This document shows, piece by piece, positions 17,324-25,277 of a stretch of DNA of 64,000 nucleotides; position 1 is the first letter of the stretch; the number at the start of each line of letters is the position of its first letter. The translations under genes were made by a program, and so were the position numbers. The stretch comes from Escherichia phage PP01. Location: sequence record NC_054930.1. One strand, written 5' to 3'. The notes under the pieces are model-generated. The model was not told the origin of the DNA. It was given only the letters and a program-made list of their open reading frames with translations, and searched no databases.

Positions 17324-19381
17324 CTACATTTTGAACTTTTTAGACATTCCGTTGATGTTAACCAAAGAAGCCAAGATTTGAGAAACTTCATTTTCCTCTT
17401 CTTTTGATTCTTCTACAAGGAATTGATTAAATCCAGCCATTGGACGAACTTCACCAGTTTCCATTAGATGGTCGCCATCATATACCGATTCTTTTAATTG
17501 TTCAGAAGGAGGAACGATTGTGCCTTCGATTAAATACTTATTATAAGCAGTTTCTTTCATCATGTACGTACTCACTTTATTAATCTTCAGCAAAATTCCA
17601 CGCGGTAAAATAACTTCAGCTTCTGACGGAAATCCTGATAAATGCCCTGGAACGATAACTTTGATTCGCTCAGCTCCTTTAATTACCATACCCACGCTAG
17701 TTTCAGCATCTTCATTCGCATAAGCAGAATGACTGCCCATATGCATTAAATCTTCAGCATCAACGGAACCTTCTCCTTCACCAGAAAATACTGCACCGGA
17801 ATCATCTAGAGCCATATAGTTTTTACCATACTCACCGAAGATATTTGGTTTAAGCGATGTGGATACGAAGTTCTTGAAATAGAACATTTTATTTTCAATA
17901 TTATGACGTAAAGTTTTAAAGGTAACTTCTTGTCCACGGTAAAGTGTAGTTCCTGGAGGAAGAACTGATCCTTTGGCAAAGGCAGAATCCATTGTCTCGA
18001 TGTGTTTAATAGCTCGTTCCATGTATTCTTCACGTGTAGAATCCGGTTTACCTAAAAGGAACGAGTTCATTTCAACATATGAATCTGCACAATAATCTTC
18101 AATTACATCAGACTCAGCCTGAGTTAATCCTTTTGGAGTTACTTCAGTACTTGCATATTCATACGCTTGAGAAGCAGACTCATTAATCAATTTATAAACG
18201 CCATTCATGACAAATTGAATAATAGCTACCTTTTCATCTGGCGTGGCTTTAGAACCTTTAACTAAATCATTGACGATTTTCTTAATAACATCAAAGCTAT
18301 TAGAAATATTAATGTCAGCAAGATCGCTTAAAATTTTATCAGTTTTATAATCAAAAAATTCTTTATTCTTTAAATATTCTTGAGAACCTTGATATGTTAT
18401 ATCGCTCTGTAACTTGATAGATGGATCACGTAAACGTGCATGAGCCAATGCAATATGATTTCGGAAGCTTTCTAGTTCATAATCACTAGATTTAAAACGA
18501 GAAGCACTTCTCATACCACCGATAGCTCCTTTGCTGAAGTTTGAACCAACCTGAATAACGCCGGAGTTCATTGGTCCTTCTGCTTTATATACCGGAACTT
18601 TAGATTCAAACTCTTGGTATTTCTTAGCAGCGAAGCTATCACCCTGAAGTGAAGCATCGACGGTAGAGTATTGAGCTTGTGCTGCTAATCGACGACTAAT
18701 TTTAGTTTTCTGAATAACAGCTTGATCCGTGCGCTTATCATTTTCTAAAGCAATAGAAGCGGCAACAGCGACAGCTTTAGGAACAGCATTACCTGTTTTA
18801 ACATCTACATAAACATCACCAACCTTTGATTCAACTTTTGTGAATAACTCAGTTGAAATAGGAGGTACACCTGGAATGTCTTCTAAATTGGCATTTTTAC
18901 GGTAAACCATAATATATGCATATTTCTTATCATAGTCCCAGATTTCCTTTAAAAGAACATATCGACCTGCTCCTTTAGTACGTACTAAACGGTCGGCAAT
19001 AACTTGCATTTGACGAGCTGCGCCATTTGTTTTACTCTTTAGTACGCGGAATAAGCATGCGTCAATTTTGTACTGTTTCATTGTCTGAAGAGCAGTATCA
19101 AAAACCGCATTAATGACACCAATTGGATTTCCACCCAAGTTTTTAAGTTTAACTAATGATAGTTTCTCATTAACACCTATCATTACGATATGCATCATTT
19201 TATCGCCTGGCTTAACGTTTTTATTCGTATCACCGCCAGAGGTGTATGTACAAAATCTAAATCCAGGAAGCACGCTTTCTTCGCCTGCTTGAATAGCAAA
19301 AATTTGAGGTATTTTATGCTTAGGATTTAAGTTAACAACCGGCGCCGAAGCGCCGTCAAATAATTCTGTAATAAGTTCCAT
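17324..19381 (-). CDS. Alt-family mono-ADP-ribosyltransferase paralog (distal copy)
   Basis: 685 aa; Alt-like N-terminus MELITELFD...; R-S-E motifs LYRGQ, FVSTSL, EAEVILPRG. Confidence 0.8.
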   Translation of the reverse strand: MELITELFDGASAPVVNLNPKHKIPQIFAIQAGEESVLPGFRFCTYTSGGDTNKNVKPGDKMMHIVMIGVNEKLSLVKLKNLGGNPIGVINAVFDTALQTMKQYKIDACLFRVLKSKTNGAARQMQVIADRLVRTKGAGRYVLLKEIWDYDKKYAYIMVYRKNANLEDIPGVPPISTELFTKVESKVGDVYVDVKTGNAVPKAVAVAASIALENDKRTDQAVIQKTKISRRLAAQAQYSTVDASLQGDSFAAKKYQEFESKVPVYKAEGPMNSGVIQVGSNFSKGAIGGMRSASRFKSSDYELESFRNHIALAHARLRDPSIKLQSDITYQGSQEYLKNKEFFDYKTDKILSDLADINISNSFDVIKKIVNDLVKGSKATPDEKVAIIQFVMNGVYKLINESASQAYEYASTEVTPKGLTQAESDVIEDYCADSYVEMNSFLLGKPDSTREEYMERAIKHIETMDSAFAKGSVLPPGTTLYRGQEVTFKTLRHNIENKMFYFKNFVSTSLKPNIFGEYGKNYMALDDSGAVFSGEGEGSVDAEDLMHMGSHSAYANEDAETSVGMVIKGAERIKVIVPGHLSGFPSEAEVILPRGILLKINKVSTYMMKETAYNKYLIEGTIVPPSEQLKESVYDGDHLMETGEVRPMAGFNQFLVEESKEEENEVSQILASLVNINGMSKKFKM

Positions 19382-19384
19382 GAT

Positions 19385-21481
19385 TTATCCTTGAACGAAC
19401 TTGTAAGGCATGTTTGTAATATCTATGCAAGACGCAATAATTCCAAGAGATGATTCTACTTTCTGTTTAATATTTGATGAAACAAATGATGCAAAGTCAA
19501 CTCTGTCTTCTATTTCAATATCATCTGTCATTGCAACTACTTCGCCGGTTTCCATTAGACGGTCACCGTCATAAATTACTGATTCGGTGAGTTCTTCCGT
19601 AGTCATAACTTCAGCTTGAATGAGTTTTGTATTATTAGATGTTGTTCCGTCATTATTAGAAGCATCAGTTATTTTATTAACTTTGACCATCAATCCGCGT
19701 GGTAGAATAACTTCAGCTTCTGTTGCTATTCCGAGACTTCCTGGATATACAACATTAACTTTATGAGCTCCATCAATTGCCCATCCTATTTGAACTTTAA
19801 CGTATTCAGGATTTTCTTTATACGCTCTTATTTCGTTTGGATTGATAGTTATTCCTTCTTCATTTTTATCAACTGTTAATTCATTACGAGCTTCTGGTTC
19901 TAAAAGACCTATACCAGCATGTGTAATTCCAAAACGTCCAAAAATGATAGGAGTTAAAGAAGTAGATACAAAATTTCTGAAATAGAACACTTTATTTTTA
20001 ACTAGTGCTTCGTATATAGGAGCAGTCATGCTTTGAGCACGATAAACTGTAATGCCTTCTGGTATACGGTCACCATTTTCAAAAGCTGAATCTAAATTAT
20101 TTATCGCAGATTCAATTTCTTTTTCACTCATTACATCATATCGTTCTGGATTGTAGCGGCCTAAAAGAAGATTATTGATGTCAGTATATCCTGATCCACA
20201 ATACTCTCTAATGCCGCGCTTTTGCGATGGAGTATATTTAGAACCATCACGTGCAATGGTAATATCAATCATTGGACCTGCACCAATTCCAGAAAAGCTA
20301 TAAATCATTCGTTTGAGGAATTTAGTTTTTGCTGCGTTCCAGGAATTTTTAGTTATTTCTTCCCAGACTTCATCTGGCTGCCCTTTACGAGTTTTATTAT
20401 GTTTATCAAGCCAATTATCTTTATATTCTTCAAAGAATTGATTAACAGCTGCTGCGTATTTCTCTAAACATTTTATTGAAGTAGTTGGTTCATTTTTAAT
20501 CGCATTAAGAATTACATCTTTAATTTTTTCAGAAACTTCATTAACCTCACTTTTTGAAAAGAATTTATAATCATAGTGAAGTTCATCTGCAGTTCCTTCA
20601 GCAATAATTTTTGCTGCCTTAGTTTTAGAAGCTAATGAATTAATTCCAAGTTTCATTTCTTCTGCTTCAGGAATTAAAGGAGCTGTAGCAGGTTTATTGA
20701 AATTAGCTGCGGTAGATTCATACTTCTGGAATAATTCACTTTCAAATCTAGAAGATTCTAATGATTGACTTTGCGCAATTGCTCTACGGGAAATTTTAAC
20801 TTTAACGATTACAGCTTGGTCAGAACGTTTATCATTTTCTTGTGCAATAGAAGCAGCAATTGCCTCATTTTTAGTTACTTGAGCTCCAGTATCTTTATTA
20901 ATATAAACATCGCCGACTTTCGATTCAACTTTAGTAAAGAGCTCGGTACTAATTTCCGGAACTCCTGGAATGTCTTCTAGTGATACATTTTTGCGATGTA
21001 TAAGAATATATGCATACTTTTTATCATAATCCCAGAGTTCCTTAAGAAGGACGTATCTGCCACCTGAACGACTACGGATAAGTCTATCAGCAATAACTTG
21101 AATTTGTCGAGCTTGACCAGCAGTTTTAGACTTAAGAATACGAAGCATGCAGGCATCAATTTTATACTGACGCATTGTTTGCATTGCAATAGTAAAAACT
21201 GAATTGATATAATTAATTGGGCTTGGACCGAGACCTTTTAATTTAGCAATTGAACCTTTAGCAGTTAATGTAAAAGGAACAATATGCATCATTTTATCGC
21301 CCATTTTTAAATCGCGATTAGTATCACCTCCAGATGTATAGGTACATAAACGAAAGCCTGGTTGTTCAATTGCGTCATCAACGTGAACTGAAAAAATTTG
21401 TGGTATTTTCTTCTTTGGATTTAAGTTTGTAATCGGAAGAGTAGTATCTTCGTCAAATAATTCTGTAATAAGTTCCATCAT
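19385..21481 (-). CDS. alt: Alt mono-ADP-ribosyltransferase (copy adjacent to gene 30)
   Basis: 698 aa; N-terminus MMELITELFD; motifs VYRAQ, FVSTSL, EAEVILPRG; late promoter upstream. Confidence 0.8.
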   Translation of the reverse strand: MMELITELFDEDTTLPITNLNPKKKIPQIFSVHVDDAIEQPGFRLCTYTSGGDTNRDLKMGDKMMHIVPFTLTAKGSIAKLKGLGPSPINYINSVFTIAMQTMRQYKIDACMLRILKSKTAGQARQIQVIADRLIRSRSGGRYVLLKELWDYDKKYAYILIHRKNVSLEDIPGVPEISTELFTKVESKVGDVYINKDTGAQVTKNEAIAASIAQENDKRSDQAVIVKVKISRRAIAQSQSLESSRFESELFQKYESTAANFNKPATAPLIPEAEEMKLGINSLASKTKAAKIIAEGTADELHYDYKFFSKSEVNEVSEKIKDVILNAIKNEPTTSIKCLEKYAAAVNQFFEEYKDNWLDKHNKTRKGQPDEVWEEITKNSWNAAKTKFLKRMIYSFSGIGAGPMIDITIARDGSKYTPSQKRGIREYCGSGYTDINNLLLGRYNPERYDVMSEKEIESAINNLDSAFENGDRIPEGITVYRAQSMTAPIYEALVKNKVFYFRNFVSTSLTPIIFGRFGITHAGIGLLEPEARNELTVDKNEEGITINPNEIRAYKENPEYVKVQIGWAIDGAHKVNVVYPGSLGIATEAEVILPRGLMVKVNKITDASNNDGTTSNNTKLIQAEVMTTEELTESVIYDGDRLMETGEVVAMTDDIEIEDRVDFASFVSSNIKQKVESSLGIIASCIDITNMPYKFVQG

Positions 21482-21532: not shown

Positions 21533-21719
21533 AATAATCTAGTGGTAAGAGAGTACGGTATATTTCAAACTTTGGCCCTTTTTCATAGGCATCAAATGTT
21601 TCTGTAAATTTATTATAAGCATACGCATCTACAAATTCGAGAATGACTTGCGATACCGAAGTAGAAACATCTCCACCTTCTTTTTGAGCTATAACAATTG
21701 TTTCTAAGTAAGCTTTCAT
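21531..21719 (-). CDS. Hypothetical protein
   Basis: 62-aa ORF; ATGA overlap with the gene 30 stop. Confidence 0.5.
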   Translation of the reverse strand: MKAYLETIVIAQKEGGDVSTSVSQVILEFVDAYAYNKFTETFDAYEKGPKFEIYRTLLPLDY

Positions 21720-23176
21720 AGACCAGTTACCTCATGAAAATCACCAAATACATCCTCGAATGTATTAGCTTTAGTTTTATCTTCACGTAAACGAATCGCA
21801 ATCGGAAGAAATAATTTAACGTAATCAGTGCGGCCATCAGATTTTAACCAACCATTGCATTCGCACTCTAGAATTTTTCCAATATAATAATTTTGGTTTT
21901 CCATAATGCGAGTACGGTCAAGTTCATGTGATTTTACACCGGCTTTATCTTTTAAGCCTGAACCTGCATTTACTTTAATTTTTCCACACTCTGATTCAAG
22001 AATAAATCCACCCGCTTTAGTAGGGTCTTTACGGTGAGGATAAATTCCTACAATTTTTAAATCAACATCAATTACTTCTTTAAATTTATAGAGATTTTTT
22101 GAACGAGCATTTTCCCACAATCCATCGGTATTTTTGAGAATAATACCTTCAAGACCTTGGTCAATATATTTTTTATAAATTACCTTAGCTTCATCTAGGT
22201 TATTTACTACCTGGTTTTCAATTAAAATTACTTTATCATATCCTGATGCCATTTGTTCTAGTTTAGAAAAACGTACATCATATTTTAAACGAAACGCCGG
22301 AAGACCGTATATTTCTACCAACGGAACATAATCCCAGACCTGAAACTTCATGCATTTGGCTTCTTTTTCTGAAATAGTTCCCTTTAAAGATTTATTGGCG
22401 ATTCCATTAGAAGCAGTACGAGATTCAGCTACTTCGGCAAACTCTTTAGCTTTACTGATTTCAGGAGCATCAAAAAGAAAATCTAGGCCTTCTGGTTCCT
22501 TTTCAACTTGCTCATGGTATACCAATTCGCCATCAATTAACACACCTTCTGGATGAATCTGGCGGGCTTCAGCAGTCATTTTGATTAACTCTTCCTTAAG
22601 AAGATCTAATCCTAAATATTCATTACCAGCTCGCGATAAAAGACGAACATCATCTAATTCATCGCCTCGGACTTCAGCAAAACACCGAGCTCCATCAGCT
22701 TTTAACTGTGCAAAAGCTGGAAACTTGATATTCTTACTAATGCCTTTTTCATCATAAGAACTTGCAAGCATTTGAGGTTGTTCAGGAATTAAACCTGGCC
22801 AAACTTTGTTTGCAATAGATACTGAAGCACCGCATTCAAGGTCTCGCATCATAACTCGACGCAAAACTTCAACATCATCCTTTTTACCATCGGTGATATA
22901 TCCAGTTAATTCCTCAATTGCTGCATTGCCAGTTAATTTCCGAGTAGCTAACGTGAATTCAATGAAGTCAAGCATATCGGTAATAGTCAACATTCCAAAA
23001 CTCTGGGTAGCAATACCAGGTTTAGGCCATTTCTTGATATAATATTGTAACCCACGAGAATAAGTCAGACGATATACTCGTTTAAGCAATTCATTATCTT
23101 TATTCTTTTCAAGAATTGCTTGCTTCTGTTTAGTTGATCCAATAGATGCTATTTCATTCAGAATTTTAAGAATCAT
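21716..23176 (-). CDS. 30: ATP-dependent DNA ligase gp30
   Basis: 486 aa; adenylation motif LKADGAR (KxDG); synteny. Confidence 0.9.
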   Translation of the reverse strand: MILKILNEIASIGSTKQKQAILEKNKDNELLKRVYRLTYSRGLQYYIKKWPKPGIATQSFGMLTITDMLDFIEFTLATRKLTGNAAIEELTGYITDGKKDDVEVLRRVMMRDLECGASVSIANKVWPGLIPEQPQMLASSYDEKGISKNIKFPAFAQLKADGARCFAEVRGDELDDVRLLSRAGNEYLGLDLLKEELIKMTAEARQIHPEGVLIDGELVYHEQVEKEPEGLDFLFDAPEISKAKEFAEVAESRTASNGIANKSLKGTISEKEAKCMKFQVWDYVPLVEIYGLPAFRLKYDVRFSKLEQMASGYDKVILIENQVVNNLDEAKVIYKKYIDQGLEGIILKNTDGLWENARSKNLYKFKEVIDVDLKIVGIYPHRKDPTKAGGFILESECGKIKVNAGSGLKDKAGVKSHELDRTRIMENQNYYIGKILECECNGWLKSDGRTDYVKLFLPIAIRLREDKTKANTFEDVFGDFHEVTGL

Positions 23177-23442
23177 TGCTCATCCTTCAAGGTTTGGTTT
23201 ACAGCTCTATTATAAATCAATTCATCATTAAGCTCAGGCAAAGACTTATGATATGTAGTTCTAACTTTATTTCCTTGCATCCAGTGCTTGACGTAAATGA
23301 AACCTTGCTCTACACATTTTTTAAAAATTCGTTCGTCTTTTTGAGCTCGGAATTCTGGATTGCATCTAAAAAATTGATTTACGTGACCGTAATCACGTGT
23401 AGTATTACCTTCATTTTCATAAATAGTGTGAACGACAAACAT
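23173..23442 (-). CDS. Hypothetical protein (30.1-like)
   Basis: 89-aa ORF overlapping the gene 30 start codon. Confidence 0.5.
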   Translation of the reverse strand: MFVVHTIYENEGNTTRDYGHVNQFFRCNPEFRAQKDERIFKKCVEQGFIYVKHWMQGNKVRTTYHKSLPELNDELIYNRAVNQTLKDEQ

Positions 23443-24281
23443 TAGAATGCTCCTTGAAAAATATTATCACCACTAGTAGGTCTATTATACAAATACTCTA
23501 TGCCACCAGGTTTAATATAGTTCCATGTCTGAAACGGATGTGTCTGATATGGATGATATGGATGATTATAAGGATTAAATCCAGGCGTTCTCCAGGTAGT
23601 GTTCCAAGGAAAAGAATCGTTTTTAACCATCTTCTCAATTACATCTTTTATAGCTTTTTCACTATCAAAACTTTCTTTATTTTCCTTTGGTGAAAAAAGC
23701 TTATTTTCTACATCATTCCATGTATAAACTCGCTGCGCAGTTTTTGGAATATTGTCACGCTCTCCTCGAGCCATCCAATAAACTGGAACATTTAATATTT
23801 CACTCGCATGATCGCAGTGATGAGCGAGATCGTCAATATAACAAATTACGTTATATTTCTCTTTTGCCTTTTTGAACAGCTCTTCTTTTGAAGAATCATG
23901 ACCACACATCATTACTTCTGAGAAGGCACCGGGAAAAAGAGCATTCAAATTAAATTGACGATTCAACAGAGCGTCAATAGAATCACCCAATGCTGTAACA
24001 GCTACAAAATTATAATCTTCCTTTAATTTGTTAATTACACACAGGGCATCTTTATACGGAGACAAGTAACGAATAAAATCTGAACGATTGTATTTTTCAA
24101 TTAACTTGACGCCAAGTTCTTCGTCACAATTAAAGAGTTTACCTGGAGAAATAAATTTCTCATCTTGGATCATTTTTAAAATATGTTCTAATGGAAGATT
24201 ATATTTCTGAGCAAAATAAGGAAGGCCTGATTGCCAGCTTAAACATACTCCATCAATATCAGTCAAAATAGTTGGCTTCAT
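23442..24281 (-). CDS. HAD-superfamily phosphatase, 5'(3')-deoxyribonucleotidase-like (30.2-like)
   Basis: N-terminal ILTDIDGV motif (DxDGV); aromatic/proline-rich C-terminal tail. Confidence 0.55.
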   Translation of the reverse strand: MKPTILTDIDGVCLSWQSGLPYFAQKYNLPLEHILKMIQDEKFISPGKLFNCDEELGVKLIEKYNRSDFIRYLSPYKDALCVINKLKEDYNFVAVTALGDSIDALLNRQFNLNALFPGAFSEVMMCGHDSSKEELFKKAKEKYNVICYIDDLAHHCDHASEILNVPVYWMARGERDNIPKTAQRVYTWNDVENKLFSPKENKESFDSEKAIKDVIEKMVKNDSFPWNTTWRTPGFNPYNHPYHPYQTHPFQTWNYIKPGGIEYLYNRPTSGDNIFQGAF

Positions 24282-24736
24282 AGAGAGTCTCTTAATAGAT
24301 TTAACACATCAATAAATTCAGCTTCGGTTAGTATTGTATCATCTTTTGTTAGACCACTAGCCATGCTGTGCTTCAAAACTTTTCCTTTCGAGGCTTGTAA
24401 TGCATCACGAAAGCCCCTGTTTTGGATCGCTGCTTCAAAATATGCATTTGTGTATAATTCTTTCCACGCTGGAGAGTATCTTGAAAACGGAACTCCAAGC
24501 CAGAACAACGTGCCACGGTCCTGAGCTCTAGCATAAGCTCGTCCAGCTTTTTGCGCGTCCAACCCAGACATCCCAAATATACGACGTTGTTGTTCAACAT
24601 TTTTCACCTTACATCCCTGGAGAAATCCTTCGAGACCTCCAAATTGGATACCATTCATAACGAAAGGCCATTGGGCGAAATTGCTTAATGCACATGATGG
24701 CCATCTAAAATTGCTTCTAATCTCTAACTCAGACAT
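24278..24736 (-). CDS. NADAR/YbiA-like domain protein (30.3-like)
   Basis: Motif LSNFAQWPF...GIQFGGLEGFLQ matches the YbiA/NADAR signature FSNFxxWP...EHYFQ. Confidence 0.6.
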   Translation of the reverse strand: MSELEIRSNFRWPSCALSNFAQWPFVMNGIQFGGLEGFLQGCKVKNVEQQRRIFGMSGLDAQKAGRAYARAQDRGTLFWLGVPFSRYSPAWKELYTNAYFEAAIQNRGFRDALQASKGKVLKHSMASGLTKDDTILTEAEFIDVLNLLRDSL

Positions 24737-24944
24737 CTTTAATACTTATAATTTCAATATCAGCCCAATGACCGTAACCTGGTAGACGGTCCTCAATGGA
24801 TAATCCGCCATCATATTTAAGCATTTTAATTGTCATAATATATGGCTCTAAATGGTCTTCTGTGAGAGGAGAAACGTCAGTCACACGATAAGTAACTTCA
24901 ACCATTTCCGTACCTAATAATTTCTGAATTAATTTCTTAAACAT
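24729..24944 (-). CDS. Hypothetical protein
   Basis: 71-aa ORF, ATG start, operon-packed. Confidence 0.45.
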   Translation of the reverse strand: MFKKLIQKLLGTEMVEVTYRVTDVSPLTEDHLEPYIMTIKMLKYDGGLSIEDRLPGYGHWADIEIISIKDV

Positions 24945-24948
24945 TTTA

Positions 24949-25236
24949 TTAGAACCTCATCTGAAAACCATGCGATTTAACATTACCGCCGCCAATATCA
25001 GAAATGTTAATTTCACGCGCAATTGAAGGGTCAATATCAATTTCACGATTGAGTTTAGTAATAGCTAAAGTATCACGGCCATTTACAGTACGGAACTCTA
25101 AAGGGCAGACTACATTAACGTAGTTTTTAATCGATTCACTGGTAGGTTGCAAATGAGCAGGAAGGTCTTTAGGCGCCTTAGAGAAAACTACTTCACAGAA
25201 ATTTTTGCGGGTATCAAAATAAGTAGTCATAAACAT
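24949..25236 (-). CDS. Hypothetical protein
   Basis: 95-aa ORF, ATG start with GAGGAAAAT SD. Confidence 0.5.
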   Translation of the reverse strand: MFMTTYFDTRKNFCEVVFSKAPKDLPAHLQPTSESIKNYVNVVCPLEFRTVNGRDTLAITKLNREIDIDPSIAREINISDIGGGNVKSHGFQMRF

Positions 25237-25277
25237 AGTATTTTCCTCAGTAAGGGGCCGAAGCCCCTCATTTTATT

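Follow-up and report, generated by a model that had tools for sequence, protein, structure and literature searches.

Gene 30.3 (adfN) of Escherichia phage PP01, an orthologue of the T4 NADAR hydrolase AdfN with a probable role against DarTG1

What is the function of a 152-residue protein encoded beside gene 30 in a T-even-like phage, and could it protect phage DNA against a host toxin? We consider this for Escherichia phage PP01, in a stretch of 64,000 nucleotides (nt) of sequence record NC_054930.1 (the window, to which all coordinates refer). An open reading frame (ORF) runs here on the minus strand from 24736 to 24278, from ATG to TGA, and codes for 152 amino acids (aa). A first-pass annotation, made from the sequence alone, had read an LSNFAQWPF motif in this ORF as the signature of the YbiA/NADAR family, and had proposed a counter-defence against a DarT-like toxin that attaches adenosine diphosphate (ADP)-ribose to DNA. 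The ORF and the quoted motifs are as described (ALSNFAQWPF forms residues 16–25 of the product and GIQFGGLEGFLQ residues 29–40), the minus strand being a detail that had been left unstated. The ORF is very probably the orthologue of T4 gene 30.3 (adfN, anti-DarT factor NADAR), encoding a single-domain NADAR hydrolase that counters DarTG1.

Identity of the gene and homology to YbiA

The adfN coding sequence (24278..24736, minus strand; 152 codons plus stop) gives a product that matches PF08010 (Phage_30_3) along the whole profile (positions 1–138 of 138) in a Pfam scan, at 230.1 bits and an E value of 9e-69, where the gathering cut-off is 36 bits. Its match in PHROGs is phrog_652, a group of unknown function. 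A large protein collection holds 98 homologues, down to ~33% identity, and the gene is present in 1509 phage records; together with the PF08010 score, these counts rule out a chance ORF. The window comes from a T4-like phage (Tequatrovirus): over the 1.9 kb that surround the ORF, it is 96–97% identical to Tequatrovirus genomes. The gene order reads two alt-like genes, alt.1, 30 (ligase), 30.1, 30.2, 30.3, 30.4, 30.6, 30.7, 30.8, rIII and 31, and because this is the order of T4, the ORF is gene 30.3. As in T4 it sits between 30.4 and 30.2, and its product has the same length as T4 gp30.3, with 145 of the 152 residues identical, seven substitutions and no gaps. The proximity to gene 30 and the alt genes that was noted at first reading also holds, with the DNA ligase gene at 21716..23176 and two Alt-like genes at 17324..21481.

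The resemblance of the N-terminal motif to YbiA is real homology, visible only at the level of profiles and structures. We aligned 61 full-length family members taken from the relatives in the protein collection. Scanned singly, 30 of them matched the NADAR family PF08719 at E <= 1 (best 1.5e-7), and the profile of the alignment, compared with Protein Data Bank (PDB) sequences, ranked E. coli YbiA (2B3W) first with an E value of 0.0021. Aligned by hhalign with YbiA of E. coli K-12, the same family gave a probability of 95.4% and an E value of 1.8e-8, window residues 2–122 corresponding to YbiA residues 15–124. Several relatives carry the JGI name 'YbiA (DUF1768 family)', and one (P0068) has precomputed matches to both PF08010 and PF08719. 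The predicted structure of the 152-aa protein (AlphaFold2, AF2) has the YbiA/NADAR fold, a helical core flanked by small beta-sheets, and E. coli YbiA (2B3W), the founding member of NADAR/DUF1768, is the best match among solved structures in both sequence and fold. The two proteins have the motifs SNFA..W.., E-x6-K and LLAT in common. Membership of the window protein in the NADAR superfamily thus holds by the deeper profile and structure tests, bearing out the family assignment drawn from one motif and the structural comparison with YbiA that had been proposed to check it.

Active site and state of the window allele

Residue equivalences, which rest on sequence alignment and the literature, locate the functional positions of NADARs in the window protein. 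Glu36 (codon GAA, 24629..24631, minus strand) is invariant in the 61 members and corresponds to YbiA E48 and to E43 of PnNADAR, which holds the distal ribose (Schuller et al., 2023, PMC11543638). Lys43 (codon AAG, 24608..24610, minus strand), a Lys in 59 of the 61, corresponds to YbiA K55 and to the essential phosphate-binding Lys of PnNADAR (K50) and E. coli C7 NADAR (K95) (PMC11543638). Both align with the Glu and Lys of the YbiA EHYFQAQKF motif, the E-x6-K spacing being common to the two. His123 (codon CAC, 24368..24370, minus strand) takes the last-strand catalytic position; carrying the ungapped hhalign alignment one residue further pairs it with YbiA E125, and in the AF2 model it comes just after strand 120–122. 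This position (PnNADAR E125) is Glu in YbiA-type, Asp in DarT1-linked and His in phage NADARs (PMC11543638), and the His, present in 61/61 members, marks the phage (gp30.3) subfamily.

The last-strand residue bears directly on whether the window protein could be a YbiA-type housekeeping N-glycosidase, acting on small molecules (reactive riboflavin-pathway intermediates) and not on DNA adducts. Such a role would fit the shared fold and the detectable homology, and one bacterial His-type member (P0031, 155 aa; L006 3992–4459) does have housekeeping genes and no toxin around it: in a Caulobacteraceae metagenome-assembled genome (MAG), its gene shares 4 nt with a Pyr_redox_2 oxidoreductase gene and adjoins rimM and ffh. 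We nevertheless regard this role as very improbable, as the Glu that defines YbiA proper is replaced by His in every aligned member, including the window protein, and the T4 orthologue hydrolyses guanine-ADP-ribose (G-ADPr) on DNA, its deletion abolishing growth on DarTG1 hosts (PMC11825919). The housekeeping enzyme YbiA also removes cytidine-ADP-ribose (C-ADPr), which the T4 enzyme does not (PMC11543638, PMC12945103). Since P0031 is encoded in a bacterial MAG, the 'phage NADAR' subfamily is not restricted to phages; its distant His-type relatives are mostly on phage-like contigs. Three loci with such homologues, one from a bacterial MAG and two from phage-like contigs, were searched for a neighbouring DarT-like toxin, and none was found.

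The window allele is intact in its reading frame, its catalytic trio and its C-terminal alpha-helix, and T4 gp30.3 has the same E36, K43, H123 and helix. In the AF2 model the helix spans residues 138–151 (24284..24325, minus strand); it is lost from the defective RB69 allele, in which an extra T, absent from the window and from T4, creates a TGA after Thr137. A PF08010 score above the gathering cut-off, the last-strand His and a core-only architecture with an intact C-terminal helix place the protein in the PF08010/AdfN-T4 subfamily. Many phage hits covered only residues 1–144 and were considered as RB69-like truncations; this was rejected, since two examples, slur14 and ST0, are full length and the shortening is a tblastn end-trimming artefact.

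Of the seven differences from T4, D28N alone falls on a strongly conserved column. Asn28 (codon AAT, 24653..24655, minus strand) was seen only in the window allele among the sequences compared, and the closest allele, that of phage Nami, differs from it solely by having Asp at this position. Asp occupies this column in 55/61 relatives and in YbiA (VDG), the other relatives having Arg or Glu. D28N may be an error of sequencing or a neutral polymorphism, or it may matter to function and alter the activity of the window allele. That it marks a weakened or inactive copy, decaying as the RB69 allele has, would accord with the conservation of Asp and the private nature of the change, but is improbable: intact family members carry Arg and Glu at 28, the position is outside the residues tested and shown as catalytic, and frame, trio and helix are all preserved. 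We infer that the window allele behaves like that of T4.

A second, shorter ORF of 75 aa (24373–24600, minus strand) lies wholly inside adfN in another frame, and corresponds to the annotated T4 gene 30.3', described there as 'internal translation in a different reading frame'. It matches phrog_14037 at 3.6e-42, and may be a real gene or may merely be carried along by the conservation of adfN.

Reversal of guanine ADP-ribosylation by AdfN

NADARs reverse the guanine ADP-ribosylation carried out by DarT1 (Schuller et al., 2023, PMC11543638). Purified T4 gp30.3 strips ADP-ribose from guanosine, not thymidine, in DNA (2024, PMC11125620), and the T4 enzyme removes G-ADPr and not C-ADPr (2026, PMC12945103). 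Johannesman et al. traced the ability of T-even phages to resist DarTG1 to gene 30.3, which they renamed adfN (2025, PMC11825919). Deletion of adfN in T4 or T2 abolishes plaques on DarTG1 cells, ectopic expression of AdfN restores plating of RB69 on such cells, purified AdfN removes ADP-ribose from DNA, and E36A, K43A and C-terminally truncated variants of T4 AdfN are impaired, according to the same report (PMC11825919). In published work, T4 AdfN is necessary and sufficient to counter DarTG1. The counter-defence against a DNA-modifying DarT-like toxin that the first-pass annotation had put forward is therefore supported, the T4 orthologue having been published as the anti-DarTG1 factor AdfN. 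The Methods of PMC11125620 give the T4 gp30.3 construct as 'residues 1-208', as against the 152 aa encoded by gene 30.3.

Enzyme activity, guanine specificity (with no activity on thymidine- or cytidine-ADPr) and the anti-DarTG1 phenotype would carry over to the window protein by analogy with the 95%-identical T4 protein. The host toxin DarT1 blocks replication by attaching ADP-ribose to phage DNA at guanine N2; AdfN, a minimal single-domain NADAR core, would cleave the ribose-guanine bond to leave unmodified DNA, and phage growth would then be possible on DarTG1-bearing hosts. Glu36 would position the distal ribose and Lys43 would bind the diphosphate, His123 would serve at the last-strand catalytic position occupied by Glu or Asp in other NADARs, and the C-terminal helix would be needed for full activity.

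Several observations weigh against this assignment. Taken alone, the 152-aa protein has no match to the NADAR family PF08719 in a Pfam scan even at E <= 10, so that the hidden Markov model (HMM) search against Pfam DUF1768/NADAR proposed at first reading fails if taken literally; nor did it match any NCBIfam model, and when it was compared singly with PDB sequences, all matches were at chance level. The substitution at position 28 affects a column conserved up to YbiA, though other members tolerate Arg or Glu there. T4 gp30.3 fails to rescue DarT1 toxicity in uninfected E. coli cells (PMC11125620), and AdfN works fully only in T-even infection, so that a further phage co-factor is implied (PMC11825919).

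One candidate for the T-even factor, an unlikely choice at present, is gp30.2, whose gene lies downstream of adfN and may be coupled to it in translation; the ATGA overlap of the two genes, in the window and in T4, speaks weakly for it. The gene (23442–24281, minus strand) encodes 279 aa with a HAD-type DIDGV N-terminus and an unusual His/Pro/Tyr-rich tail. Its product resembles 5'(3')-nucleotidase and matches phrog_420, and has no Pfam match at E <= 0.01; some records call it a HAD-like hydrolase or 5'-nucleotidase. When the neighbours of adfN in the window were compared by BLAST with four distant loci, a 30.2 homologue adjoined 30.3 in Acinetobacter phage 133, and none was found within 6 kb of 30.3 in Sinorhizobium phage phiM12, Vibrio phage K491 or Aeromonas phage Aes508. 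The genome-level host distributions of gp30.2 and gp30.3 are near-identical, which is uninformative because both are near-core genes of Straboviridae. These data neither support nor exclude 30.2 as the co-factor of AdfN.

ADP-ribose could also come from within the phage, and the main role of AdfN might then be to reverse modification by the phage's own transferases (the two Alt-like enzymes encoded nearby, together with ModA and ModB) and not by a host toxin. Two Alt-like genes do lie ~3–7 kb from adfN in the same orientation, and RNA, too, is stated to be a substrate from which NADARs take guanine-ADPr in vitro (PMC12945103). Yet the nearby enzymes are of the PF03496 type and Alt is annotated as targeting host RNA polymerase, a protein, whereas the activity demonstrated for NADARs is on ADP-ribose linked to bases; the gene is unlinked to alt in distant phages, and the T4 deletion phenotype is reported only on DarTG1 hosts in the passages of PMC11825919 considered here. 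We give this role scarcely any credence, and repair of DarT1-modified DNA is the reading we retain.

How does AdfN compare with the NADARs known to oppose DarT1? DarG1 (e.g. the Geobacter lovleyi NADAR 8BAT and E. coli C7 NADAR) is the NADAR antitoxin of DarTG1 and carries an N-terminal extension of the YbiA core, which the window AdfN lacks, starting ~10 residues before the core (152 vs 219 aa, with 133 residues aligned). The last strand carries His123 in the window AdfN and Asp in DarG1, so that the window protein falls outside the DarG1 (BC4488) family. DarG1 adjoins darT1, while the window adfN is an orphan in the phage early region between 30.4 and 30.2, with the Alt-like PF03496 proteins several kb away as the only transferases nearby. 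Unlike DarG1, T4 AdfN leaves DarT1 unneutralised in uninfected cells. AdfN-Bas32 and AdfN-Bas60 of T5-like and Vequintavirinae phages are likewise orphan phage NADARs that counter DarTG1; as described in PMC11825919, both come from other clades of NADARs, were independently acquired and need no extra phage factors.

What is described here of the gene (its family, the structural class and activity of its product, and its role in biology) is already known, having been published for the T4 orthologue in 2023–2025, and the window contributes one more intact adfN allele. The gene exemplifies an orphan antitoxin-like enzyme carried by a phage, a counter-defence that repairs ADP-ribosylated DNA. There is also value for annotation, as almost all of ~75 phage records among the matches listed label the gene 'hypothetical protein', and all that Pfam yields when scanned directly is 'Phage_30_3', with no link to NADAR. 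A genuine remote homology could here be recovered from a short motif by a first-stage reader.

Gene organisation around adfN

The stop codon of adfN and the start of 30.2 share a 4-nt ATGA overlap (24278..24281, minus strand), arranged likewise in T4, which suggests co-transcription and translational coupling of the two genes. Upstream, the stop of 30.4 and the start of adfN overlap by 8 nt (ATGTCTGA, 24729..24736, minus strand), and adfN is probably expressed as part of a tightly overlapping 30.4-30.3-30.2 unit. Between 21500 and 27400, predicted promoters (23 vs 20.2 +/- 5.1 in shuffled sequence) and terminators (5 vs 3.8 +/- 2.9) were both at chance level.

The window differs from T4 at two places in the region. 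Gene 30.5, situated in T4 between 30.4 and 30.6, is absent (24944–24949), leaving 30.4 and 30.6 separated by 4 nt; RB69 is likewise without it. The two Alt-like ADP-ribosyltransferase genes (17324–19381 and 19385–21481, minus strand; 685 and 698 aa, both PF03496) are full length and in tandem, in contrast to the one alt gene of RB69 and to T4, which has one alt and the degenerate duplicates alt.-1 and alt.-2. The window phage appears to retain an intact form of the alt duplication that has decayed in T4.

Beyond the T-even group, gp30.3 homologues were seen near RNA-repair or tRNA genes in three cases, which remain anecdotal, although NADARs are reported to act on guanine-ADPr in RNA as well (PMC12945103). 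In phiM12 (L002 955–8515) the genes close to the homologue include those for an RNA ligase and a CCA-adding enzyme. Two RNA ligase genes and an AAA_33 kinase-like gene accompany it on a metagenomic phage contig (L007 7664–12606), and in Aeromonas phage Aes508 (L005 2213–6547) it lies inside a tRNA gene cluster. Within the window, the short gap between 30.7 and 30.6 holds a GC-rich hairpin at 25253–25268 (AGGGGC-CGAA-GCCCCT on the plus strand), which forms a UUCG loop when read from the minus strand, the one transcribed, and may be an RNA-stabilising or attenuating element.
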